Shown here: positions 28,752 to 62,975 of the stretch, in pieces
How positions within the stretch are numbered: position 1 is the first letter of the stretch
How the letters are laid out: the number at the start of each line of letters is the position of its first letter
NCBI GenBank assembly: GCA_016187465.1
Contig: JACPJQ010000004.1
Location: 104,861-168,860 of the forward strand
Direction of reading: 5' to 3'
Source: Candidatus Woesearchaeota archaeon
GTDB taxonomy: Archaea; Nanobdellota; Nanobdellia; Woesearchaeales; GW2011-AR4
Length of the DNA stretch: 64,000 bases
Position numbers and translations under genes: made by a program
Notes under the pieces: generated by a model
Databases searched by the model: none
What the model was told of the DNA's origin: nothing
What the model saw: the letters and a program-made list of their open reading frames with translations, nothing else

Positions 28752-29525
28752 ATGGAAGCAAAGCTAGTCCGGAAATTCGGCAACAGCGGTCATGTAATCG
28801 TGCCAAAAGAATATATAGGCAAAAGAATAAAGTTTATTGCAGAGCCAAAAACCTTTGAAGATATAAAATCTGAGATATTAGTAATTCTAAAGTCGTGTCT
28901 AGAAAACATAATTGGCATTTATTTATACGGCTCTTATGCCAGAAATGAGCAGACAATAGAATCCGACATAGACATTTTGGTAATTACTGACACAAAATTA
29001 AAAATAATGGAAAAGATTTATGATTACTCTATTGTTTCTATCACAATAAATGAGCTTGAAAAGACACTAGATACTAACGCTGTTTTAATATTTCCAATAA
29101 TAAAAGAAGCTAAAATTATTATTAATCCGGAATTATTAGAAAAGTATAAGCAATACAAATTTACGAAAAAGAATACTGAAGTTTTCATTGAAGGTACTGG
29201 CAAAATTTTGGATTTAAATAAAAAAGGTCTTGAGTTGGATTTTGAGTTAGGAAGCCTTGTTTATTCCTTGATGCTGAGGATCAGGGGCTTGTTAATGATA
29301 AATCTTATACTGAGCGGTAAATTCTATTCAAAATCAGTTTTATTCGATTTTTTGGAAGGCAAAGGCTTGACAAAAGACAAAATTTTGGAGTTATATAAAA
29401 TCTATTCCTCTGAAATGGACGGGATTAAAATAAAAGAAAACAGAATTGTCACAAAAGAAGATATCAAAAAATTGCTAATTATTGCTGAAAATCTATTAAA
29501 AGAAGCGATAGGCTTGCTAAAATGA
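28752..29525 (+). CDS. AbrB/SpoVT-like swapped-hairpin domain fused to a minimal nucleotidyltransferase (MNT) domain plus uncharacterised C-terminal domain
   Basis: VRKFGNSGHVIVPKEYIGK N-terminus; GIYLYGSYARNEQTIESDIDILVITD NTase motif. Confidence 0.6.
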   Translation: MEAKLVRKFGNSGHVIVPKEYIGKRIKFIAEPKTFEDIKSEILVILKSCLENIIGIYLYGSYARNEQTIESDIDILVITDTKLKIMEKIYDYSIVSITINELEKTLDTNAVLIFPIIKEAKIIINPELLEKYKQYKFTKKNTEVFIEGTGKILDLNKKGLELDFELGSLVYSLMLRIRGLLMINLILSGKFYSKSVLFDFLEGKGLTKDKILELYKIYSSEMDGIKIKENRIVTKEDIKKLLIIAENLLKEAIGLLK

Positions 29526-29740
29526 GCAAAAAGAAATTCAAGAAAGGAATTGAAAGCATCGGACACCAAATCAATATTCATAAAAATATTAAATTAAAAA
29601 AAGCTATAGAAGAAGGAAATGTTGAATTAGCAGGATATTATGAAAAAGAAATTAAAAGGTTAGAGGAGCAGTTGATTGAAAAGCAGGAAAAATTATTGCC
29701 GAGAAGCAAAAGAATTAAACTGAAAACCAAACTCAAATAA
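29522..29740 (+). CDS. small Lys/Glu-rich coiled-coil protein
   Basis: 72 aa; ATGA overlap with upstream gene. Confidence 0.3.
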   Translation: MSKKKFKKGIESIGHQINIHKNIKLKKAIEEGNVELAGYYEKEIKRLEEQLIEKQEKLLPRSKRIKLKTKLK

Positions 29741-29744
29741 TCCT

Positions 29745-31853
29745 TCAAGCAATCCTCGCCTTATACCTGTTCAGCAGCATCGCATTCCCGACAACAGTTA
29801 TTGAGCTTGAGGCCATTGCTATTGCAGCAAAGATAGGGTTAAGAAGTATTCCGAACGGATAAAGCACGCCTGCTGCCACAGGTATCAAGCTCACATTGTA
29901 AAAGAAAGCCCAGAAAAGGTTCTGCTTCATCTTTGCAACAGTTCTTTTGCTCAAATCTATTGCAGTTACAACATCCCTTAAGTCATTTTTTATCAAAACT
30001 ATGCCGCCAGTTTCTTTTGCGATGTCTGTGCCTGCGCCGATAGCAATGCCGACATCTGCCTTGGCAAGCATAGGCGCATCATTAATTCCGTCGCCAACAG
30101 CAGCAACTATCTTGCCTTTTTCCTGCAGTTCCTTTACCTTTTTTGCCTTATCCTGAGGCAGAACCTCTGCCATCACGTTATCGATACCAAGCTGCAAAGC
30201 AATCGCCTTTGCAGTCCTTTCATTATCGCCGGTAATCATCCAGACTTCCTTGCCCATCGTCTTCAGTTTTTCAATAGCATCTTTTGAATTTTCCTTTAAG
30301 GTGTCAGCAATTGCAATCAAACCGATAATTTTCTTATCATACGCCGCTAATACAACTGTCTTGCCCTCATTTTCCAATTTTTGAATTTGATTTTCTATAT
30401 TATCACTAGGAATTCTGTAATCACGCATAAACAGCCTGTTGCCGACAAGAATTGTTTTGTTTTTATAATCGGCTTTAATGCCCTTGCCTGCAACAGTCTG
30501 ATAAGATTCAGCTTTTGGCAATTGCAGTTTCATTTCATCAGATTTTTTTAAAATAGCTTGGCCTAAAGGGTGCTCTGAACCTTTCTCAGCAATAGCCGCA
30601 AATTTAGTAACATCATTTTCCACAAATTTTGAATCTAAAACAACAACATTAGTAACAGAGGGCTCGCCTTTGGTAAGCGTTCCGGTCTTGTCAAAAATTA
30701 TAGATGTTATTTTGTGTGTTTTCTCCAAGAACTCGCCGCTCTTGACCAAAATCCCGTTTTGAGCGCCTTTGCCGGCGCCTATCATTATGGCTGACGGAGT
30801 TGCGATTCCCAATGCGCATGGGCAAGCAATTATCAGAACAGAAATTAGCATAGTCATTGCCATCGGGAAATGCAGGCCTGCAATAAAATACCAGAACAAA
30901 AATGATAAAACCGAAATCAAAATGACTATTGGCACAAAATAGGAAGAAATCAAGTCCGCCAGCCTCTGCATGGGCGCCCTGCTTCTTATTGCATCCTGCA
31001 CCATCTTTACAATCTGGGCAAGAGTCGTAGCCTCCCCGACTCTGGCAGCCTTCACTTTCAGCAATCCGCTTTTGTTGATAGTTGCTCCGATAACCTCATC
31101 TCCAGGCTTCTTGCCTGCTGGAATAGACTCGCCTGTAATCATTGATTGGTCAACAGAAGAGCTGCCCTCAAGCACAATTCCATCAACTGCAATTTTCTCT
31201 CCGGGCTTTGCTATGAAAATATCGCCAACCTTGATTTGCTCAACTGGAATTTGCATTTCATTTTCACCTCTGATTATAGTTGCAAGCTTTGGCTGCAGAT
31301 CAACAAGCTTTCTTATTGCCTGCGAAGCCCTCCCCTTGACCAAATGCTCCAGATACTTTCCCAGCATTATGAATCCGATAATCAGGCCAGATTCGGTGAA
31401 ATACACTTCTGTCATTCCGCCGGTTGAAGGGAATATTGCCGGCCATAAAATTCCCTGAAAAGCAATGATTGTGCTGTAAATCCAGGCAGCTGATGTGCCA
31501 ATCGCAATCAAGCTGTCCATATTCGCCTGCTTGGCCTTTACCGCGTCAACTGCTCCCCTGTAAAACCGCCAGCCACCTATAAACTGCACAGGGGTTGCAA
31601 GCAAAAAAAGCAAAATATAATTCGGCAAGCCAGGAAATGAAACCCTGTAGATATATTCAAAGAATGCAGTTACCAGTCCAAATCCTAAACTGAAGGCTGT
31701 CAAATATTTCAAATTCCTTTTCTCCTTTTCAGGCTTCAGAAAAGCTTCAAGGCAGTTGCCGCTGCAGAAGTAATATGCTGTCCCCTCCTGAGTTGTTTTG
31801 AATTTAGCCTTGCTTTCGTCAACATACATCCCGCAAATAAGGTCCTTTGCCAT
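29745..31853 (-). CDS. copA: copper-translocating P1B-type ATPase with N-terminal TRASH/YHS-type metal-binding domain
   Basis: CGMYVDESKA...YYFCSGNC N-terminus, TGES, CPCALG, DKTGTLT, GDGINDAP. Confidence 0.9.
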   Translation of the reverse strand: MAKDLICGMYVDESKAKFKTTQEGTAYYFCSGNCLEAFLKPEKEKRNLKYLTAFSLGFGLVTAFFEYIYRVSFPGLPNYILLFLLATPVQFIGGWRFYRGAVDAVKAKQANMDSLIAIGTSAAWIYSTIIAFQGILWPAIFPSTGGMTEVYFTESGLIIGFIMLGKYLEHLVKGRASQAIRKLVDLQPKLATIIRGENEMQIPVEQIKVGDIFIAKPGEKIAVDGIVLEGSSSVDQSMITGESIPAGKKPGDEVIGATINKSGLLKVKAARVGEATTLAQIVKMVQDAIRSRAPMQRLADLISSYFVPIVILISVLSFLFWYFIAGLHFPMAMTMLISVLIIACPCALGIATPSAIMIGAGKGAQNGILVKSGEFLEKTHKITSIIFDKTGTLTKGEPSVTNVVVLDSKFVENDVTKFAAIAEKGSEHPLGQAILKKSDEMKLQLPKAESYQTVAGKGIKADYKNKTILVGNRLFMRDYRIPSDNIENQIQKLENEGKTVVLAAYDKKIIGLIAIADTLKENSKDAIEKLKTMGKEVWMITGDNERTAKAIALQLGIDNVMAEVLPQDKAKKVKELQEKGKIVAAVGDGINDAPMLAKADVGIAIGAGTDIAKETGGIVLIKNDLRDVVTAIDLSKRTVAKMKQNLFWAFFYNVSLIPVAAGVLYPFGILLNPIFAAIAMASSSITVVGNAMLLNRYKARIA

Positions 31854-31854
31854 T

Positions 31855-31983
31855 TTATTCAGATTCCTCGAATTCGTTAAGGCAGTTCTCGCTGCAAAAA
31901 TAATGCTTTTTGCCGTTTTTCACAAAGGCGTATTCTGCAGCCTTTTCGTCCACTTCCATTCCGCATATTGGGTCTATTGCCAT
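31855..31983 (-). CDS. 42-aa stand-alone TRASH/YHS metal-binding mini-protein (putative copper chaperone)
   Basis: MAIDPICGMEVDEKAAEYAFVKNGKKHYFCSENCLNEFEESE; found manually (below ORF-track size cutoff); 1 nt upstream of copA. Confidence 0.5.
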   Translation of the reverse strand: MAIDPICGMEVDEKAAEYAFVKNGKKHYFCSENCLNEFEESE

Positions 31984-31985
31984 TT

Positions 31986-32144
31986 TCAAATTTTAATTGC
32001 GTGCTTTGTTATTTCTATGCTGCAGGCATAATGCTTTTTGCAATAAGCCTCACATTCTTCAGCAATTTTTTTATCTTTATAAACAAAATTGCACGCTTCA
32101 CATTCAAAATATTTTTTGCCCGATCTTTTAATTTCTTTGACCAT
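31986..32144 (-). CDS. 52-aa Cys-rich (zinc-ribbon-like) mini-protein
   Basis: MVKEIKRSGKKYFECEACNF...CEAYCKKHYAC; found manually; start overlaps DUF2892 stop (ATGA). Confidence 0.35.
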   Translation of the reverse strand: MVKEIKRSGKKYFECEACNFVYKDKKIAEECEAYCKKHYACSIEITKHAIKI

Positions 32145-32152
32145 TTGCAAAA

Positions 32153-32353
32153 TCATTGGTCTTTATTGCTGATGCCTAAAGCATTATGTACCCAGCACCA
32201 TCCTATAAAGCTCTCAACCAATGCAATCCAGCCAACAATGAACATGGCCCAGTTTACCAGTTCAGTGCCGTATTCTGGAGCCAAGGGCCCTAGCCACCAA
32301 AATGCCAGCGCAAACCTTAAAATCCTGTCGGTTTTGCCTAAATTCTGCCTCAT
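32153..32353 (-). CDS. DUF2892 (YgaP-like) small membrane protein
   Basis: DRILRFALAFWWLG...GWCWVHNALGI pattern. Confidence 0.5.
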   Translation of the reverse strand: MRQNLGKTDRILRFALAFWWLGPLAPEYGTELVNWAMFIVGWIALVESFIGWCWVHNALGISNKDQ

Positions 32354-32413
32354 TTTTTCACCTCCGCATTAATATGAAGTGGTTCCTAAAATCACTGATT
32401 TTCGATATTCGTC

Positions 32414-32860
32414 TTAATTCCATTCAAAGACTCTTTCTTCAACATTGGGAATACCTTTTATGATTATTCTAAACTTATCAAACTTTTCAATTACGTTAAA
32501 TGCAAGTGCGCCGGAGCTGTGGTGCCCCTCTAATTTCGGCGCATTTATTGGAGAGATTTTCTTTCCGCCATATTCCAAAGTTGTTATTTTTTCCAATGCA
32601 TACGTGCCCAACTCAACTGAATGTGTGTTTACTGCAAAATCAACTTGCAGCTGGCTATTGGCAAAGCCTCTTGGAGTTAAATCAATCTGCACGCTTCCCT
32701 GATCTGTGCTGCCTGTTGATATCATCTTAAAGCCCGGAGAGGGGTTATTACCTGCAGTCGGCACATCCTCATTTTTTTCAGCAGTCAGCCCGTAAATCGA
32801 ATAAAACAGTATAAGCACAGCCACTGCCAAAGCCCCATAAACTATATAGTCACTTTTCAA
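32414..32860 (-). CDS. secreted/anchored hypothetical protein
   Basis: N-terminal TM then soluble domain. Confidence 0.35.
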   Translation of the reverse strand: MKSDYIVYGALAVAVLILFYSIYGLTAEKNEDVPTAGNNPSPGFKMISTGSTDQGSVQIDLTPRGFANSQLQVDFAVNTHSVELGTYALEKITTLEYGGKKISPINAPKLEGHHSSGALAFNVIEKFDKFRIIIKGIPNVEERVFEWN

Positions 32861-33287
32861 TATGGCACCTCCTGTTGCTTATTCTATCCCTTATAAACAA
32901 GACTATGCCAACTAATGCAACAAATCCCCCAATTGCCCAAAAAAACACGTTAAACCTCTGCAAATTCTGGAACGGCGTGCCTGCAATTATAAGCCCAGAG
33001 TTGAGAATTATAAGGTTCTTTGAAATGCATTTTCTGGTTTGGTAAAGAACGATTGTCGCCAACAAAATCAAAACAGCCACTGCCCACAGCGGAACAGCTA
33101 TTTTTGTCAGGAAAAGCAGCGGCATTCCTGTTATGGTTATGCCGACTAGGCTCAATAAAAAAATCATGCCTAAACAAACGTTATGGCATACCTGCCATGA
33201 GCCAAGTATGCTTGCACCTCCTGAAATGCTTCCAGTCGCTCCTATCAATTTTTCCTTGACGTTTTTTGGCTTTGAATCCATTGTCAT
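32850..33287 (-). CDS. membrane protein with CxxxC motif (possible metal-handling)
   Basis: SWQVCHNVCLGM within first TM region. Confidence 0.35.
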   Translation of the reverse strand: MTMDSKPKNVKEKLIGATGSISGGASILGSWQVCHNVCLGMIFLLSLVGITITGMPLLFLTKIAVPLWAVAVLILLATIVLYQTRKCISKNLIILNSGLIIAGTPFQNLQRFNVFFWAIGGFVALVGIVLFIRDRISNRRCHIEK

Positions 33288-33778
33288 AATTCCTTGCAGC
33301 AGTCCAATATCTTTTTCATTATCTCTGAAAATTTTGAGCTTAAGGCCTGACTGGAAGGATTTGAGATAGTTTTTATCTCTTCCTTGTCTACAATTTTCAG
33401 GTTAATTGCAAAGAACAATGAAAAAAGCTCGAATGCAGCTTCAAAGTAGGAGTTTGCCTCATTTTTGTCAGTTTTGTACGCTTTTGTGCCGACTTCTATT
33501 AAGCGCATGCTTGAGGCAAGAAGGTGCTTGCTTACGCACCATTCCTCCCCTTTTGGGTTTGTAACGATTTTCTTCATCAGTTTTGTTCTCAATCCTCTTA
33601 TCGAGTCGAGCATTTCAAGGTACTTTTGGTTGTTTGTTTTTATTGCAGTGAAATAAAAATGCTCTTCGAGGCTTATCAAGTTCATGATGGCTATTGCCAA
33701 GTCCTCATCTTTTGACAAATCCGCTTCATTCTTGATATTTTTGACTTTCTCTATCCATCTGTTAATTTCATCTTTCAT
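33284..33778 (-). CDS. hypothetical cytoplasmic protein
   Basis: 164-aa ORF. Confidence 0.35.
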   Translation of the reverse strand: MKDEINRWIEKVKNIKNEADLSKDEDLAIAIMNLISLEEHFYFTAIKTNNQKYLEMLDSIRGLRTKLMKKIVTNPKGEEWCVSKHLLASSMRLIEVGTKAYKTDKNEANSYFEAAFELFSLFFAINLKIVDKEEIKTISNPSSQALSSKFSEIMKKILDCCKEL

Positions 33779-34323
33779 TTTATTATATTGTAATGCAGCA
33801 TTAACTGCAGGATTATCCCGGTAATAATCAGCAATAGAAAAGTCAATGCTATCCCTTGGTATGGAATGTGCCTTCCTTTTCTGATAGATGTTATTTTATC
33901 GCTTAAGTAAGGCGCAATTGCAACCACAACAGAGCCAATTATGCTCCCAACAACAAAATAATCAACAAGGTAAGTCCTGTTAAACAGGCTTCCATAATCC
34001 CCGTATAAGGAAATAAATAACGGGTGCTCGTCCTTTAGAATCATCCTCATGGGAATAATTGTTAGCAAATAAGAAGCAATTGTTATTATGGATTTTTGCA
34101 ACGGTACAAACTTTTTCTTAAGAATCCTTGAAAACCACAGCCCTGTTGAAACTGCGAAAGCTCCTATAAAAACCCCGATAACCATTCTGTGCACCCCTAA
34201 GACAGCAGCTCCTCCGGCTACAAAAGCAGCTCCAACAGTGCACAATGGGCAATGCGCGAAAGCAGTTTGCGGCACCGTGAGTAATATTGCAGCCGCTATT
34301 AGAAAAAACTTGATTCTTCCCAT
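33775..34323 (-). CDS. membrane protein with N-terminal HCPLC motif
   Basis: 182 aa, several TM helices. Confidence 0.35.
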   Translation of the reverse strand: MGRIKFFLIAAAILLTVPQTAFAHCPLCTVGAAFVAGGAAVLGVHRMVIGVFIGAFAVSTGLWFSRILKKKFVPLQKSIITIASYLLTIIPMRMILKDEHPLFISLYGDYGSLFNRTYLVDYFVVGSIIGSVVVAIAPYLSDKITSIRKGRHIPYQGIALTFLLLIITGIILQLMLHYNIIK

Positions 34324-34803
34324 TTATATCCTCGTAAATTCCGCTATGGAACCGTCCTTAGATATAGAATAAATGATGAAAGGCCCTGTCTTTTTTCCAG
34401 GCATCCCTGGCGAGGCAGATGGCATCCCGGGCAATGAAATTCCTTTTGTATCAGGCTTTTCCTTCAACAATTTTTCAATTGCCTCAACAGGAACATGCCC
34501 TTCAACATAATAATCACCTATAAGCGATGTATGGCAGCTAAGAAGATTTTTAGGTATGCTGTACTCGTTTTTCACGCCTTCAAGACTCGAAACAAGCTTG
34601 ACCTCTACATCAAACCCGTTCCTTTTCATGTAGTCGCTGTATAAACCGCAGCACCCGCAGGAAGGATCTTGGAATATTGTTATTTTTACATCCTTAAAAT
34701 TGGCATTTTTGCCGGCATCTTTGCTGCATCCAGCCAAAACAACAGCCAATGAAACCAGCAGTACAAATGCGGTTGTTCTAATCTTGAAGTTCATTTCAAT
34801 CAC
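34324..34803 (-). CDS. DUF411-family metal(copper)-binding protein with signal peptide
   Basis: DPSCGCCG...SCHTSLIGDYYVEGHVPVEAIEKLL. Confidence 0.6.
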   Translation of the reverse strand: MIEMNFKIRTTAFVLLVSLAVVLAGCSKDAGKNANFKDVKITIFQDPSCGCCGLYSDYMKRNGFDVEVKLVSSLEGVKNEYSIPKNLLSCHTSLIGDYYVEGHVPVEAIEKLLKEKPDTKGISLPGMPSASPGMPGKKTGPFIIYSISKDGSIAEFTRI

Positions 34804-34809
34804 CCTAAT

Positions 34810-35121
34810 TCAAATATTGAATTTTTCAGCAACCTTGTTGTAAACAAACGCAAATATGTATCCAGTGGCTGCTGCAATTACAAACCATCCAATAACACCG
34901 GTCACAGCACCCGCCAAAGAAATGTTTTTGACGACTATTCCAGACACATCAATGCTGTGCTGAAGCGCATTCACAAAACTTACAACCAATGGGATAGGAA
35001 TAAACGCGACAATAGCAAGACATATTACATACAGCACAATTGCCGTAATGCCGAGCGACAAAGCCACAATATTTCCGTTTAATTTTTCCATGCGATATCT
35101 CCTCCGGGACTTATAACTCAA
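34810..35121 (-). CDS. small membrane protein
   Basis: 103 aa, 3 hydrophobic helices. Confidence 0.3.
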   Translation of the reverse strand: MSYKSRRRYRMEKLNGNIVALSLGITAIVLYVICLAIVAFIPIPLVVSFVNALQHSIDVSGIVVKNISLAGAVTGVIGWFVIAAATGYIFAFVYNKVAEKFNI

Positions 35122-35299
35122 CGCCCAGATATTTTTGCCTTAAATCTTCAAGCGAAGCTTCTTCATTACATTCGCCACACAGATTATTCGCTTCAAGGGC
35201 TTGCACCAATATTGCCTTGCCGCAAATTTCACATCTTGCTCTTTTCATGCTTTTCAACCAGCTCGTTTTATCTCGCTGTCCATCCCCCGTCAACAACAA
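35111..35299 (-). CDS. small zinc-ribbon protein
   Basis: CEICGK...CGEC. Confidence 0.3.
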   Translation of the reverse strand: MLLTGDGQRDKTSWLKSMKRARCEICGKAILVQALEANNLCGECNEEASLEDLRQKYLGVEL

Positions 35300-36026
35300 G
35301 ATTATGGCCTGTTATGAAGCTTGATTCGTCCAATGCCAAAAATACAGCAGCATTCCCTATATCCTCAGGCTGCCCGAATCTTCCAACTGGGGTGTTTTCA
35401 AGCAGCGATTTTCTTGTTTCCTCGTCATTAATCATTCCCTTTGTCATGTCTGTGACTATAACTCCGGGATTGATTGCGTTTACTGTTATCTTGTATTGTG
35501 CGCAGTCCAGCGCAACTTCTCTTGTGAATTCTGTAACCCCCCCTTTTGATGCGCAATAAGCGGAAATGCCAGGAAATCCGACCAGGCCGGCAATTGAAGA
35601 AATGTTTATGATTCTTCCGCTTGTGCCTTGCTTTTTCATCTGCATAACTGCATATTTTGTCGCAAAGAAAACTCCTTTAAGGTTTACATCCATCTGCTTG
35701 TCCCAGTCCTGCTCTGTGAGCGTATCGACAGTTCCCTGCACGAGAATACCTGCATTATTGACCATTATGTCCAGCCTGCCAAAATGTTTAACTGTATGCT
35801 CGACTAAACTCTTCATATCCACTTCCCTTATGACATCTGCCTTTACAAATATAGAGTCTGCACCAAGTTTTTTTATTTCTTCAGCAGTCTTTTTAGCATC
35901 TTCATCTTCCTTATAGCTGTTAACAACAACCTTGCAGCCTTCTCTTGCCAGTGCAATTGCAATGCCTTTTCCAATTCCCCTGTTGGAGCCTGTAACAATT
36001 GCGATTTTTCCATCCAGTTTTCCCAT
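35268..36026 (-). CDS. short-chain dehydrogenase/reductase (FabG-like)
   Basis: TGSNRGIGKGIA, NNAG, S...YxxxK (YCASKGG). Confidence 0.85.
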   Translation of the reverse strand: MGKLDGKIAIVTGSNRGIGKGIAIALAREGCKVVVNSYKEDEDAKKTAEEIKKLGADSIFVKADVIREVDMKSLVEHTVKHFGRLDIMVNNAGILVQGTVDTLTEQDWDKQMDVNLKGVFFATKYAVMQMKKQGTSGRIINISSIAGLVGFPGISAYCASKGGVTEFTREVALDCAQYKITVNAINPGVIVTDMTKGMINDEETRKSLLENTPVGRFGQPEDIGNAAVFLALDESSFITGHNLVVDGGWTAR

Positions 36027-36030
36027 TCTA

Positions 36031-36579
36031 TCACCTTTTCTTGAACACTCCCTTCCATAGCTTTATTATCCACAAATACACAAGTATAATGAGCCCTATC
36101 ACCAAGACTAATGACAGGAAATTGATAAATCCCAAGTAACCATATCCGACATTTCCCATCATTCCGTATCCTGAACCCATCATTCCATACCCAAAATTGC
36201 CTCCCATCATGGTCATCATTCCTCCATAGTTTGCTTTTGTGTTTAAACCAGTTCCCATCATGCCATAACCCATCATTCCGTAACTCGCGGAGCTGTTGAA
36301 ATCGTTGCAGTAAATTCTTTTTGCCATCGCGATGTGCATGAGCCTCAGGCTTTGAGAGCCTTCGCCCCCCATCATCTTGTCCATTGCTTCATGCGCTTGC
36401 CCAGGATGCATCTGCTCCATAAGATAGTCGCCGATAATTTCCAGCTGGCTTTCTGTCAGCTTAAAGCAAGGCGTTTTAGCGTCAATCAGTTTCTTCGCTT
36501 CCGCAAACTCCTCTGCATCGGCAAAAACAAATCCGATGCTGAAAATAAAAATCAAAAAAAATATTATATGTTTCTTCAT
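36031..36579 (-). CDS. secreted LTXXQ-motif (Spy/CpxP/ZraP-like) protein with Met/Gly-rich repetitive tail and C-terminal TM
   Basis: signal peptide; KLTESQLEII; (YGMMG)n low-complexity Met-rich region. Confidence 0.5.
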   Translation of the reverse strand: MKKHIIFFLIFIFSIGFVFADAEEFAEAKKLIDAKTPCFKLTESQLEIIGDYLMEQMHPGQAHEAMDKMMGGEGSQSLRLMHIAMAKRIYCNDFNSSASYGMMGYGMMGTGLNTKANYGGMMTMMGGNFGYGMMGSGYGMMGNVGYGYLGFINFLSLVLVIGLIILVYLWIIKLWKGVFKKR

Positions 36580-36601
36580 TTTGGCACCTCATTGTTTGTA
36601 T

Positions 36602-36988
36602 TTACCCTTTTGATATTGCTTGTACGGCTTGGCTCACTTCATCCGCATAATTTTTTTCTGTTCCACTATATTCATCTGGCAAGTTTAGTTTTTCTATTTT
36701 ATGATCTCCTCCATTATATAACGCAACACCTATCTTTCCTCCCATAAAATCCAATTCAACCCAATCTTTAGACTGATCACTATTAGACTACTCCGCCCTT
36801 ATTTGGTATTTTTTACCTTCACTTTCAACTATACTTTCAAGAACACAAACGAACTTATCACTTATGTTTACATTTCCAGGAAGTGCAATTTTTTCCCCAA
36901 GGCGTGCTATCTTACGGATTCCTTCGAATAGCCTGGCTATTTCTTCCTTGCCCAAGAGTTTGTCTAAATTTTTTTGCCCTGTCATCAT
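36602..36988 (-). pseudogene. 127-codon reading frame interrupted by one in-frame TAG (36788..36790)
   Basis: coding-like sequence continues in the same frame for 61 more codons after the TAG to a TAA at 36602. Confidence 0.3.
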
Positions 36989-37163
36989 AATCCACCCCCA
37001 ACAATTTTAGCAGCAGCCTTTGCTTTTTCCTTTTCCCATTTTATTTGCCTCCAATATGTCCAATTTTGATATATAACGCGCTTAGGTATATAAATTTTTC
37101 TGTATATATCCTATTTTGATATATCCAAAACAGAAAGATATTTATATTGGACTGGCTTATTGC

Positions 37164-37583
37164 CGGAGGATGGCAGACGTAAAAATAACAAACATGCTGA
37201 AATTCTACACATTGTGCCTTTTGGCAGCCGGAACAAAGCACGGCTATGACTTAATCAAAGAACTCGAAGAAAAACTTGGAAGGAAAATCAGCGCCAGCAA
37301 TGTCTACCCTTTCCTGAGCAATTTAAGAAAGAATAAATTGATAAGGTTTGATAAAGTCGGGAAGCGGGATAAAAAAACATATTACCTGACTTCTGAAGGG
37401 AAAAAGTTCACCACACAGATGTTCAGCAAATTCGGGGACTTGATCAACGCAGCTGTGGAGCCAAGGCTTAGGACATGCCCGTGCGGCTGCAGGGTTTATT
37501 CAGGCGGCTATTCAGAAAAGATTAGGGGAAAGATCATGCATTTCTGCTGCTCGCACTGCGCGAAAATGTTCAAGTCAAAATAG
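37164..37583 (+). CDS. PadR-family transcriptional regulator fused to C-terminal TRASH/YHS-like Cys-rich metal-binding domain
   Basis: PadR wHTH (KHGYDLIKELEEKLGRKISASNVYPFLSNLRKNKLI); C-terminus CPCGC...HFCCSHCAKMF. Confidence 0.6.
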   Translation, partial: RRMADVKITNMLKFYTLCLLAAGTKHGYDLIKELEEKLGRKISASNVYPFLSNLRKNKLIRFDKVGKRDKKTYYLTSEGKKFTTQMFSKFGDLINAAVEPRLRTCPCGCRVYSGGYSEKIRGKIMHFCCSHCAKMFKSK

Positions 37584-38901: not shown

Positions 38902-39693
38902 CTATCTGGCTTTTATTTTTAATCTAAATAACATGAACGCCCCCAGCAAAAACAACGGAAAGCTCAATAACTGCCCCATAGTAAAATAACCGAGGATAAA
39001 GCTGATTTGCCCGTCAGGCTGCCTGAAAAACTCCACTAGTGTCCTGAACAATCCGTACAAAGCTACAAAGCTCCAGAACATGAATCCTTTCGGCAGTTTC
39101 TTGTCTTTGATAAACCATAAAATGAAGAAAATAGCTAAATTTTTCATTGATTCATAAATCTGCGACGGATGCCTGCAGCCTGACGGCAGATTTTCAACAA
39201 ACTTGTTCTTCGAGTAGTCGATGCACCATGGAGCATTTGTTATTCTTCCGTAAAGCTCTGCGTTTATGAAGTTTCCAATCCTTCCAAAAGCTAACGCCAA
39301 GGCCACCGGAACAACTGCAATATCCGCCATATCATAAAACTCTATCTTTTTCTTTTTGCAGAAAAAGTAAGTGGCAATAATTGCTCCCAATAATCCTCCG
39401 TGAAAACTCAAGCCGCCATGCCACAGTGCAAAAATCTCAATCGGATTCTGAATATAAAACTGCAGATTATAAAACAAAATATATACGATTCTTGCGCCAA
39501 GCACAATCCCAACTATTTCATAGACGATAAAATCAGCAACATCATCTTTTGTTATAGGTAACTCTTTTCTTTTTGCAAGGTAAGAAATCATAAAATACGC
39601 AATCAGAAACCCAAGCGCGTAGAACAATCCGTAATACCTTATCTGAAAAGGCCCTATTTCGAGCAAAACGGGATTTATGTTGTGGAAGAACAT
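38902..39693 (-). CDS. lgt: prolipoprotein diacylglyceryl transferase
   Basis: Lgt signature LWHGGLSFHGGLLG and 7-TM architecture. Confidence 0.7.
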   Translation of the reverse strand: MFFHNINPVLLEIGPFQIRYYGLFYALGFLIAYFMISYLAKRKELPITKDDVADFIVYEIVGIVLGARIVYILFYNLQFYIQNPIEIFALWHGGLSFHGGLLGAIIATYFFCKKKKIEFYDMADIAVVPVALALAFGRIGNFINAELYGRITNAPWCIDYSKNKFVENLPSGCRHPSQIYESMKNLAIFFILWFIKDKKLPKGFMFWSFVALYGLFRTLVEFFRQPDGQISFILGYFTMGQLLSFPLFLLGAFMLFRLKIKAR

Positions 39694-62233: not shown

Positions 62234-62410
62234 AAATAAAAAAGAAAATCATAATTGACTTGGATGTTGTGACTGTTGCTTTTTGGGACAATAAAGATGA
62301 TACAAAACTTAACATAGAAAGATTGAGTAAGTAGACCCGTCAAGCCTACTAACCGTCTTAAAGGCGGGATTCGTCAGGGTCTGTTCCTCAACACCCATAT
62401 ATACAGATGT

Positions 62411-62460
62411 GATATATAAACCTTTCGCCGGAAAACAATAACGATTGAAAAAAATGAAAA
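62411..62460 (+). promoter_or_regulatory. TATA box/BRE-containing promoter-5' module, copy 1 (tatatataaacctttcgcc.g.aaacaataa...acgattga...aaaatgaaaa)
   Basis: TATA-like element ~25 nt upstream of ATG 62454; near-identical to 63088..63166. Confidence 0.5.
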
Positions 62461-62975
62461 GAGTATTGCCCGATACCAATTTTTATGAATTGATGTTAAA
62501 ATACTTGGAAGTGGAGAAAATTAGGAAAGTCAAGGAAAGCGGGGCGATTGTTTTTTACGGGATTGACATAATCAGAAAAGAATTAAGAGCCACTCCGAAA
62601 ACAAAAGTAGAAGTTGTAAGGAACGAATTATTCAAATTAAGAAGCACACTGCTCTTAGTTTATGACTTGCTCATAGGCAGACATCAATACGGCATTGACT
62701 CAAAAATAAATCAGTATGCTGATAATTATTATATCGCTTATAAAGTTCTGAAGGGAAAAGCGACAAGAGAAGAAATAATCAATGATTTTAGAATAGTAGC
62801 CTGCGCAACAATTCATAATATAGATATACTTGTTTCTGATGACAATAAAACAATGCTCTCCCAAGAATCAAAAAAAGCTTATACTTCAGTCAATAATATT
62901 CATAAATTAACAACTCCTAACTTTATAGGATTTGAAGAATTTAAAAGATTTTTAAGAGGTGTGAAGCTTGATTAA
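62454..62975 (+). CDS. hypothetical protein, possibly PIN-like
   Basis: VLPDTNFY N-terminus and VSDD acidic cluster; weak. Confidence 0.3.
   Translation: MKRVLPDTNFYELMLKYLEVEKIRKVKESGAIVFYGIDIIRKELRATPKTKVEVVRNELFKLRSTLLLVYDLLIGRHQYGIDSKINQYADNYYIAYKVLKGKATREEIINDFRIVACATIHNIDILVSDDNKTMLSQESKKAYTSVNNIHKLTTPNFIGFEEFKRFLRGVKLD

Follow-up and report, generated by a model that had tools for sequence, protein, structure and literature searches.

How do archaea with very small genomes handle copper? DPANN archaea and bacteria of the Candidate Phyla Radiation (CPR) are abundant, uncultured and endowed with very small genomes, and little is known of how they cope with metals. The question is raised here by a stretch of 64,000 nucleotides from a Candidatus Woesearchaeota archaeon (assembly GCA_016187465.1, contig JACPJQ010000004.1, positions 104,861 to 168,860 of the forward strand). 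We call this whole stretch the window and number it from its first letter. Between 29745 and 37583, the open reading frame (ORF) list and Pfam define a compact minus-strand row of genes whose last member is copA, encoding a copper-exporting ATPase; a regulator gene, PadR-TRASH, is divergent from the row. Two proteins of this island are 100% identical to HYW20_05210 and HYW20_05195, hypothetical proteins of a Candidatus Woesearchaeota (DPANN) metagenome-assembled genome (MAG).

A preliminary description, made from the sequence without database searches, had called the locus a copper and metal homeostasis island with unusual small metal-binding proteins. ORFs and Pfam place every gene that it listed where it had put them; it overlooked a DUF5676 gene, the unannotated genes for proteins of 148 and 164 residues, and an ORF of ten codons. 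We conclude that the island is likely a copper(I) sensing and export system, the archaeal cop cluster in enlarged form. This reading draws on gene content, conservation, an operator, gene fusions and the Cu(I) signature of the pump, all of which are observed. The core of the island (TRASH regulator, 42-residue TRASH protein and CopA) is already known as the archaeal cop cluster, and the PadR type of its regulator is new. Also new is what surrounds the core: a conserved, unnamed accessory set common to DPANN archaea and CPR bacteria, and a micro-gene.

The pump, its small companions and their regulator

The identity of the metal is written most plainly in the pump. The translation of CopA contains IIACPCALG in transmembrane helix (TM) 4, FFYNVSLIP in TM5 and AMASSS in TM6. 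These CPC, YN and MxxSS motifs form a Cu(I) signature and, with a DUF411 protein homologous to PDB entry 6WIS (E 4e-20), bear out the claim of a copper island. Besides its E1-E2 ATPase and HAD domains, Pfam assigns CopA a YHS domain at residues 3-43 (PF04945, E 4e-10, 40 bits against a cut-off of 30.3) and no HMA domain, so the N-terminus is of the YHS/TRASH type, as first described. The closest relatives of this CopA, 80-84% identical, come from groundwater Woesearchaeota MAGs.

The cluster is no chance grouping. The same genes occur in nearly the same order in L003, L001, L017, L005 and L016 (L-numbers denote the related contigs or loci used for neighbourhood comparison); among these related Woesearchaeota contigs, synteny is nearly complete in L003 and partial in the other four. 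From the divergent promoter the row reads micro-ORF, two orphan ORFs, a Met/Gly-rich protein, a short-chain dehydrogenase/reductase (SDR), possibly a 45-residue zinc-ribbon ORF, DUF5676, DUF411, the HCPLC membrane protein, the 164-residue helical protein, the CxxxC membrane protein, the 148-residue protein, a YgaP-like TM protein, DUF7128, the TRASH mini-protein and CopA. Genes mostly overlap their neighbours or are separated from them by 0-6 nt, an arrangement that suggests a single transcript or a small number of them. G+C content (0.39-0.43 in the island, against about 0.33-0.43 in the rest of the window) argues neither for nor against a horizontal origin. An Rfam scan of the window found a single tRNA and no RNA element within the island; an NCBIfam scan of ten island proteins gave weak PadR-type matches and none for the unannotated proteins.

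Directly before the pump lies the 42-residue TRASH protein, its stop codon 1 nt from the CopA start. Its pattern C-x21-C-x3-C falls within the C-x19-22-C-x3-C spacing of stand-alone TRASH proteins and is kept in orthologues of 41-42 residues, which directly precede copA in at least five related contigs. In related loci the mini-protein and the YHS domain of CopA agree at about 50% of residues. A chaperone and its pump are usually related in this way, which supports the reading that the mini-protein is probably the Cu(I) chaperone of CopA. The preliminary description had named it a plausible archaeal copper chaperone, which is reasonable, but the idea is not new: such a protein is already part of the published archaeal cop cluster (PMC7830388). 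Its ratio of nonsynonymous to synonymous substitutions (dN/dS) is 0.11-0.19, with synonymous sites nearly saturated.

The next gene encodes DUF7128, a protein of 52 residues whose five cysteines are conserved in archaeal and bacterial members (dN/dS 0.09-0.15); a sequence search of the PDB returned no relative. In one bacterium (L067) DUF7128 forms the N-terminus of an 839-residue CopA, ahead of an HMBD domain; nothing speaks more strongly for DUF7128 as a metal-binding module that cooperates with the pump. Elsewhere (L076) it heads a membrane protein of 562 residues. DUF7128 probably binds Cu(I) and hands it to CopA. The former DUF2892, now YgaP-like_TM, is likewise kept beside CopA genes (dN/dS 0.1-0.2). 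Across the three smallest annotated genes, dN/dS is 0.09-0.21. The case for the two mini-proteins had been made to hang on conservation in relatives; both are conserved there and under purifying selection, and we regard the genes as real. That such genes are easily missed is true of DUF7128, omitted in three of the four assemblies shown, and not of the 42-residue YHS gene, which is called on identical contigs.

What controls the row? The PadR-TRASH regulator is present at the island end as described; its TRASH score is slightly below threshold, but its Cys pattern is conserved. Its ORF opens at 37116. The conserved start, MADVKITN, and the C-terminal pattern C-x-C-x-C...CC-x2-C are kept in 10 relatives, and on identical contigs the gene is called as 137 residues. 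Pfam finds no Lrp/AsnC match in the regulator.

Two 21-bp palindromes of the form ATATATC-N7-GATATAT lie 50 bp apart between the divergent promoters. Sites with at most one mismatch were counted in about 2.0 Mb, in two independent locus sets: 18 of the 21 sites precede a PadR-TRASH gene by 55-110 bp, with two fixed spacings. In the window and related loci (1.37 Mb) this holds for 10 of 11, their centres about 56 and 106 bp from the start codon; in independent metagenome loci (650 kb) the figure is 8 of 10, at 56-66 or 104-110 bp. Altogether, conserved palindromes precede the PadR-TRASH gene in 15 loci. The whole promoter region of about 130 bp is conserved, including two TATA-like boxes that flank the proximal palindrome. 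The distal palindrome falls between the TATA-like box of the minus-strand row and the ribosome-binding site (RBS) of the micro-ORF, the first gene, so that a protein bound there would block initiation of transcription of the row. We predict that the two-palindrome sequence, newly found here, is the binding site of PadR-TRASH.

A third near-perfect copy, ATATATACAGATGTGATATAT, lies at window 62397-62417, about 30 bp upstream of an unannotated ORF of 176 residues (62445-62975). We rejected it as a functional site: the adjoining ORF has no metal link, and the match is probably due to chance.

The searchable literature on DUF7128, DUF5676, DUF2892, PadR-TRASH and the peptide strings of the micro-ORF yielded nothing relevant: no description of a PadR-TRASH fusion in a copper context or of the ATATATC-N7-GATATAT operator, and no paper on the micro-peptide strings.

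Accessory families without names

Five families that lack Pfam models recur beside CopA and CopG in DPANN archaea, Altiarchaeota and CPR bacteria, an association that is new here. They are the Met/Gly-rich protein, HCPLC, the 164-residue protein, the CxxxC protein and the 148-residue protein. The last four have no Pfam, NCBIfam or PDB relative (for the 164-residue protein, the PDB was searched by sequence). A Pfam scan of their distant members produced nothing above threshold, the sole hint being a sub-threshold DUF5643 match in long forms of the 148-residue protein. The two membrane proteins with CxxxC (VCHNVC) and HCPLC (AHCPLC) motifs had been recognized at the outset.

Linkage was also examined by look-ups seeded with homologues of the accessory genes rather than with CopA. 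The neighbourhoods so found again hold DUF411, CopA, CsoR, DUF5676 and one another, in Harrisonbacteria (CPR), Altiarchaeota and other DPANN. Homologues of HCPLC in CPR bacteria sit in clusters of the form DUF411-HCPLC-(CC-tail protein)-CopA-CsoR. Those of the 148-residue protein adjoin the CxxxC protein, HCPLC, the 164-residue protein and CopA. Of three independent look-ups with Met/Gly homologues, two placed them beside DUF411, HCPLC, the 164-residue protein and CopA.

Two arrangements are fixed. One is DUF411, then HCPLC, then a Cys-Cys-tailed partner: in DPANN the soluble 164-residue protein, in CPR a membrane protein whose last residues are ECCRNW or ACCRDW. HCPLC directly follows DUF411 in the window, L003, L085 and L087. 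The other is a Cys-bearing membrane protein followed by the 148-residue protein. The CxxxC gene is always directly upstream of the 148-residue gene (window, L003, L092, L093, L127, L135, L150 and L174), and in L017 the pair is fused.

HCPLC and the 164-residue protein of the first arrangement both occur in fusions. HCPLC has more than 160 homologues, with no Pfam domain in any of the 120 listed, and neither the window protein nor its distant members match DsbD_TM; in L091 it is fused to a rhodanese domain. The family of the 164-residue protein comprises 444 representative clusters at E<=1e-3, and members are fused to thioredoxin or glutaredoxin domains. These fusions suggest thiol chemistry. 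In two members (P0269 and P0272) an intein with a LAGLIDADG endonuclease interrupts the protein at precisely the Cys that is conserved in the WC motif, which marks this residue as functionally critical.

The Met/Gly-rich protein had been described as a secreted LTXXQ (Spy/CpxP/ZraP-like) protein whose tail is a Met/Gly-rich repeat. We reject the family assignment. The protein contains the string LTESQ, and a single L-T/S-x-x-Q-L-E motif is conserved across the family, but the window protein matches neither the LTXXQ nor the Metal_resist model of Pfam (E<=0.01), none of 34 family members matches LTXXQ (E<=1), and there is no structural similarity to Spy or CpxP. Nor is the protein simply secreted: it is membrane-anchored. 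The Met/Gly-rich stretch exists but is not the tail, as a C-terminal TM helix follows it. A four-helix domain spans roughly residues 22-92, with two conserved Cys and three conserved His, and a disordered Met/Gly/Tyr-rich linker residues 101-146. Members of this family are proteins of about 150 residues, none with a Pfam domain or a sequence relative in the PDB. Invariant are M54, E55, Q56, H58, H82, Y90 and C91; C38, H63 and M66 are nearly so.

Several annotated genes complete the island. The DUF411 protein aligns with 6WIS in its CGCC (CxCC), SCHT and PGMP motifs and bears a lipobox. A bacterial-type Lgt gene lies nearby in the window and adjoins the island in L001, L003, L004, L092, L103 and L184; by this association, Lgt may serve the lipobox-bearing protein. 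The SDR is kept at the same position in L001, L003 and L017 and occurs near CopA in L015, L038 and L041. In loci of both DPANN and CPR, DUF5676 recurs beside CopA, CsoR and the micro-ORF. The 45-residue ORF between them is doubtful: L003 has a positional counterpart with the same CxxC...CxxC skeleton, but the two lack significant similarity (E 0.07).

Some further genes were noted in passing. DUF302 proteins lie within the islands of close relatives and CPR bacteria (L001 9135-9515, L003 6765-7145, L085 2721-3131 and L155 1541-1927) and are absent from the window; the gene content of the island is thus modular even between strains with a CopA identity of about 80%. Two more unannotated families recur: one with the motif RPCC-N-x-T-...-DCNHG (L085 8951-9772), fused to DUF7128 in L076 (3238-4926), and one of about 250 residues with DGRCDxCGM...C (L096, L109 and L155). 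On the plus strand directly downstream of copA, the window has a nucleotidyltransferase (28752-29525; Polbeta/NTP_transf_2, weak DUF2080 match) and an overlapping ORF of 72 residues (29522-29740). Absent from relatives, they may be a toxin-antitoxin-like pair at the island edge.

A gene of ten codons

Can an ORF of ten codons be a gene? The frame encoding MGKGKSKGCC, first in the minus-strand row, was exposed by alignment of promoter regions. Metagenome contigs were then scanned with a degenerate pattern, which returned 110 loci. The ORF has been found 68 times: 8 times in related copper islands, at differing positions and twice in L001, and 60 times in-frame in metagenomes. It has 8-12 codons, ends in Cys-Cys-stop, is preceded by the RBS GGAGG or GAGGT, and is not called by gene finders. 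The in-frame variants include MGKGKSKGCC (20 times), MGKGKGCC (17 times) and MGKGKGKGCC (6 times), among others.

The out-of-frame matches of the same pattern serve as a control. An RBS is present in 58 of the 60 in-frame matches and in none of the 51 out-of-frame matches; island proteins occur at 30 of 59 in-frame loci and at 1 of 51 control loci. The same decapeptide is encoded by thirteen different DNA sequences. Its serine is specified by both AGY and TCN codons, in a part of the pattern that was left unconstrained, and the length variants all differ by whole codons.

The genes that follow the micro-ORF include DUF5676, the CxxxC protein, the Met/Gly protein, SDR, DUF7128, TRASH-CopA and VKOR, and in five loci a glutaredoxin gene is directly downstream; the neighbourhoods of the metagenome copies are mostly copper or thiol-redox. 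In the window, the 18 nt between the micro-ORF and the next start leave no room for an attenuator, and we take it for a small gene, not a leader. A His-rich family of about 71 residues with two TM helices (L100, L133, L138, L149, L152, L163, L165 and L189) often lies directly upstream of the micro-ORF, beside a SHOCT-domain protein.

What might such a peptide do? Speculatively, and with considerable doubt, the gene could encode, for these biosynthetically poor DPANN cells, a ribosomally made, lysine-rich Cys-Cys thiol, either a minimal metallothionein or a glutathione substitute, that would buffer or carry Cu(I) as part of an undescribed transmembrane relay. The peptide would be serviced by glutaredoxin- or thioredoxin-type proteins and joined in the relay by the CC-tailed 164-residue protein, HCPLC and the surface CopG. 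If functional, it would rank with the shortest gene products known to us to have a function, and standard gene callers would be missing real genes in metal islands.

Two orphan ORFs follow the micro-ORF in the window, where relatives have a short intergenic region. They match nothing in Pfam, and about 200 related loci contain no homologue. They are flanked by the two copies of an imperfect direct repeat of 25 nt (36592-36616 and 37098-37122) and may be a small insertion. The copy at 36592-36616, near the Met/Gly start, was rejected as an operator: it has five mismatches, and we treat it as a remnant.

Table 1. Features of the island and its flank in the window, and copies of the micro-ORF in related loci
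Feature	Position	Strand	Basis
CopA, P1B-1 Cu(I)-exporting ATPase with N-terminal YHS	29745-31853	-	Pfam; CPC, YN, MxxSS and DKTGT in translation
TRASH/YHS mini-protein, 42 residues from ATG	31855-31983	-	Pfam YHS, E 3.6e-12
DUF7128 mini-protein, 52 residues, CxxC-x13-CxxxC-x5-C	31986-32144	-	PF23447, 29.0 bits against a gathering score of 25.7
YgaP-like_TM (former DUF2892), small membrane protein with conserved GxC	32153-32353	-	Pfam, E 2.8e-11
148-residue N-terminally anchored extracytoplasmic beta-sandwich protein	32414-32860	-	Invariant NTHSV and GHH; no Pfam match
CxxxC membrane protein	32850-33287	-	About four hydrophobic segments (by eye), VCHNVC in the first; no Pfam match
164-residue soluble helical protein	33284-33778	-	GE-x-WC-x-SKH motif, C-terminal DCC-x-E tail; no Pfam match
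HCPLC polytopic membrane protein	33775-34323	-	Invariant A-H-C-P-L-C right after N-terminal hydrophobic segment; no Pfam match
CopG-like DUF411 protein	34324-34794	-	PF04214, E 3e-23; lipobox LAGC; CGCC, SCHT and PGMP...PGMP motifs
DUF5676 two-TM protein	34810-35091	-	Pfam, E 2.7e-15
Candidate zinc-ribbon-like ORF, 45 residues (MKRARCEICG...CGEC), doubtful	35111-35248	-	Fits between the genes for SDR and DUF5676
SDR, FabG-like	35268-36026	-	adh_short_C2, E 2e-72; best PDB match 3-oxoacyl-ACP reductase, E 7e-63
Membrane-anchored His/Met protein (Met/Gly-rich)	36031-36579	-	Signal peptide, four-helix domain, linker, C-terminal TM helix
Orphan ORFs: 47-50 residues (36602-36754) and 66 residues (36788-36988)	36602-36988	-	Strain-specific, between micro-ORF and Met/Gly gene
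Micro-ORF MGKGKSKGCC, 10 codons, first gene of the row	37007-37039	-	GGAGG 8 nt upstream
Distal palindrome of predicted operator, ATATGTCCAATTTTGATATAT	37054-37074	.	Centre 106 bp upstream of PadR-TRASH start
Proximal palindrome of predicted operator, ATATATCCTATTTTGATATAT	37104-37124	.	Centre 56 bp upstream of PadR-TRASH start
PadR-TRASH transcription regulator	37170-37583	+	PadR PF03551, E 7e-13, 48.8 bits; TRASH_HVO_1752_C 25.5 bits, just under the 27-bit cut-off
Lgt, bacterial-type prolipoprotein diacylglyceryl transferase	38902-39693	-	PF01790 (LGT), E 6e-81
Micro-ORF copies, L001	7564-7596; 9526-9558		
Micro-ORF copy, L003	7160-7192		
Micro-ORF copy, L005	2152-2190		
Micro-ORF copy, L016	1480-1506		
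Micro-ORF copy, L017	2084-2119		
Micro-ORF copy, L092	10094-10129		

How the island may work, and how it compares with known systems

We propose that PadR-TRASH would bind both palindromes and that Cu(I) on its Cys-rich TRASH domain would alter DNA binding, switching on the long minus-strand row. In the cytoplasm the 42-residue TRASH protein, a paralogue of the N-terminal domain of the pump, and probably also DUF7128 would pass Cu(I) to CopA for export. Outside the membrane, the lipid-anchored CopG-like protein, the His/Met protein with its Met/Gly linker and the His-bearing beta-sandwich protein would bind, buffer or redox-convert copper. HCPLC, CxxxC, the YgaP-like protein, DUF5676, the cytoplasmic Cys-Cys-tail protein and the 10-residue peptide are probably a thiol-based support layer, whose role could be metal hand-over or keeping surface cysteines reduced. 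We infer the responsiveness to copper, the metal binding by the small proteins and all roles of the thiol layer. The island shows that DPANN archaea and CPR bacteria have a conserved copper toolkit in common, and more than half of its genes belong to families without a name, a Pfam model or a solved relative.

Several observations weigh against a copper sensing and export island. No copy of the operator lies nearer to copA than the two upstream of PadR-TRASH, so control of copA by the regulator relies on one long transcript. The insert of about 400 bp with its two orphan ORFs parts the operator-proximal micro-ORF from the Met/Gly gene in this strain, though the insert runs in the same direction of transcription. 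The SDR has no known copper link, and one of the three Met/Gly look-ups (L090) lacks a copper context. Finally, the neighbourhoods are rich in DsbD, thioredoxin, VKOR and DsbA genes, and part of the set may serve general disulfide chemistry. Might HCPLC, CxxxC, the YgaP-like protein, the 164- and 148-residue proteins and the micro-peptide then be a general extracytoplasmic thiol-disulfide system that merely lies beside a copper pump? Their CxxC-type motifs, the fusions to thioredoxin, glutaredoxin and rhodanese domains, the DsbD_TM, DsbA, VKOR and thioredoxin neighbours and the glutaredoxin genes behind the micro-ORF would fit. We nevertheless consider this unlikely, as the accessory genes repeatedly lie between CopG and CopA, downstream of the operator of a TRASH regulator, and as their most constant neighbour, DUF411/CopG, is itself a copper protein. 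Moreover, known systems such as Scs tie copper stress to thiol redox, so that this explanation overlaps the copper reading and does not exclude it.

The direction of copper traffic may also be questioned: the island could supply copper to extracytoplasmic enzymes, with CopA resembling the slow pumps of the CopA2/CcoI type, rather than detoxify. There are many candidate copper binders at the surface (the CopG-like protein, the His/Met domain and the beta-sandwich protein), a cupredoxin near the L091 island and a multicopper-oxidase-like fragment near L152. But in the window, ORFs and Pfam reveal no copper enzyme within the island or next to it; the combination of metal-sensing regulator, chaperone and pump is the classic detoxification layout (PMC7830388), and in CPR relatives the same genes lie beside CsoR, a copper-stress repressor. 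We hold a metallation role to be very unlikely. That the target is some thiophilic metal other than copper (Ag, Hg, Cd or Zn) is hardly credible. The copper specificity of TRASH/YHS domains is unproven, and the Cys-rich motifs include C-terminal Cys-Cys tails that resemble the tail of MerA, but the CPC, YN and MxxSS motifs of CopA are typical of Cu(I)/Ag(I) and not of the Zn/Cd or Co sets, the window has no Pfam match to MerA, MerT or MerP, and DUF411 belongs to the copper proteins. A Cu(I) system would in any event handle silver as well.

How does a copper sensing and export island of this kind compare with systems already described? Its Met/Gly protein has in common with Spy, CpxP and ZraP the single L-T/S-x-x-Q-L-E string in a helical, exported protein. 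Those proteins lack its membrane anchor, two conserved Cys and three conserved His, and it does not have the long bent helical hairpin of Spy and CpxP. PcoE/SilE, CusF, CopC and the cyanobacterial CopM resemble it in surface location, conserved His/Met and Met-rich flexible segments, features appropriate to a Cu(I) binder of an oxidising compartment. No relation to them in sequence or fold was detected, and it is unique in joining a disulfide-stapled four-helix domain through a Met/Gly/Tyr linker to a C-terminal membrane anchor. For the 148-residue protein, the copper-binding Ig-like beta-sandwich proteins CrdA/PCuAC, CopC and P19/Tp34 were considered as candidate counterparts in fold and metal ligands.

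The vicinal Cys at the ends of the micro-peptide and the 164-residue protein recall glutathione, phytochelatins, metallothioneins, the C-terminal Cys-Cys of MerA and the tails of thioredoxin reductases, and the genes for both lie beside metal and glutaredoxin genes. The micro-peptide differs in being ribosomally made, from a gene of 8-12 codons with its own RBS. With the DsbD/CcdA-thioredoxin and ScsABCD relays, the accessory set has in common a CxxC membrane protein, a cytoplasmic Cys partner sometimes fused to thioredoxin or glutaredoxin, and a surface client of thioredoxin fold, as we take CopG to be. HCPLC differs: it has no DsbD_TM match and only one invariant Cys pair, and electron transfer through it is hypothetical.

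The DUF411 protein is clearly homologous to the protein of 6WIS and 6WJE, presumably CopG of P. aeruginosa, with the same CxCC, CH and Met-Pro motifs and a copper pump as neighbour. In Vibrio, copG adjoins copA and is induced 16-fold by copper in a CueR-dependent manner (PMC12341060). The window protein differs in being archaeal, in its lipobox and in the bacterial-type Lgt gene nearby. It is also always followed by HCPLC, a membrane protein undescribed as a partner of CopG.

The nearest counterpart is the archaeal cop cluster of Saccharolobus, Pyrococcus and Thermococcus, which comprises a CopR/CopT regulator, a CopM/CopT TRASH chaperone and CopA (PMC7830388, citing Ettema 2003, 2006). In both, the regulator carries its TRASH domain at the C-terminus, a P1B copper ATPase adjoins a small free-standing TRASH protein, and one divergent promoter region serves the regulator and its target genes. 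The DNA-binding domain of the window regulator, however, is a PadR winged helix and not the Lrp/AsnC-like helix-turn-helix of CopR, which makes the island a variant of the archaeal cop cluster rather than a strict member. It differs further in the N-terminal domain of its pump, which is YHS/TRASH rather than HMA, in an operator built from a pair of ATATATC-N7-GATATAT palindromes, and in the dozen or so extra genes of its operon.

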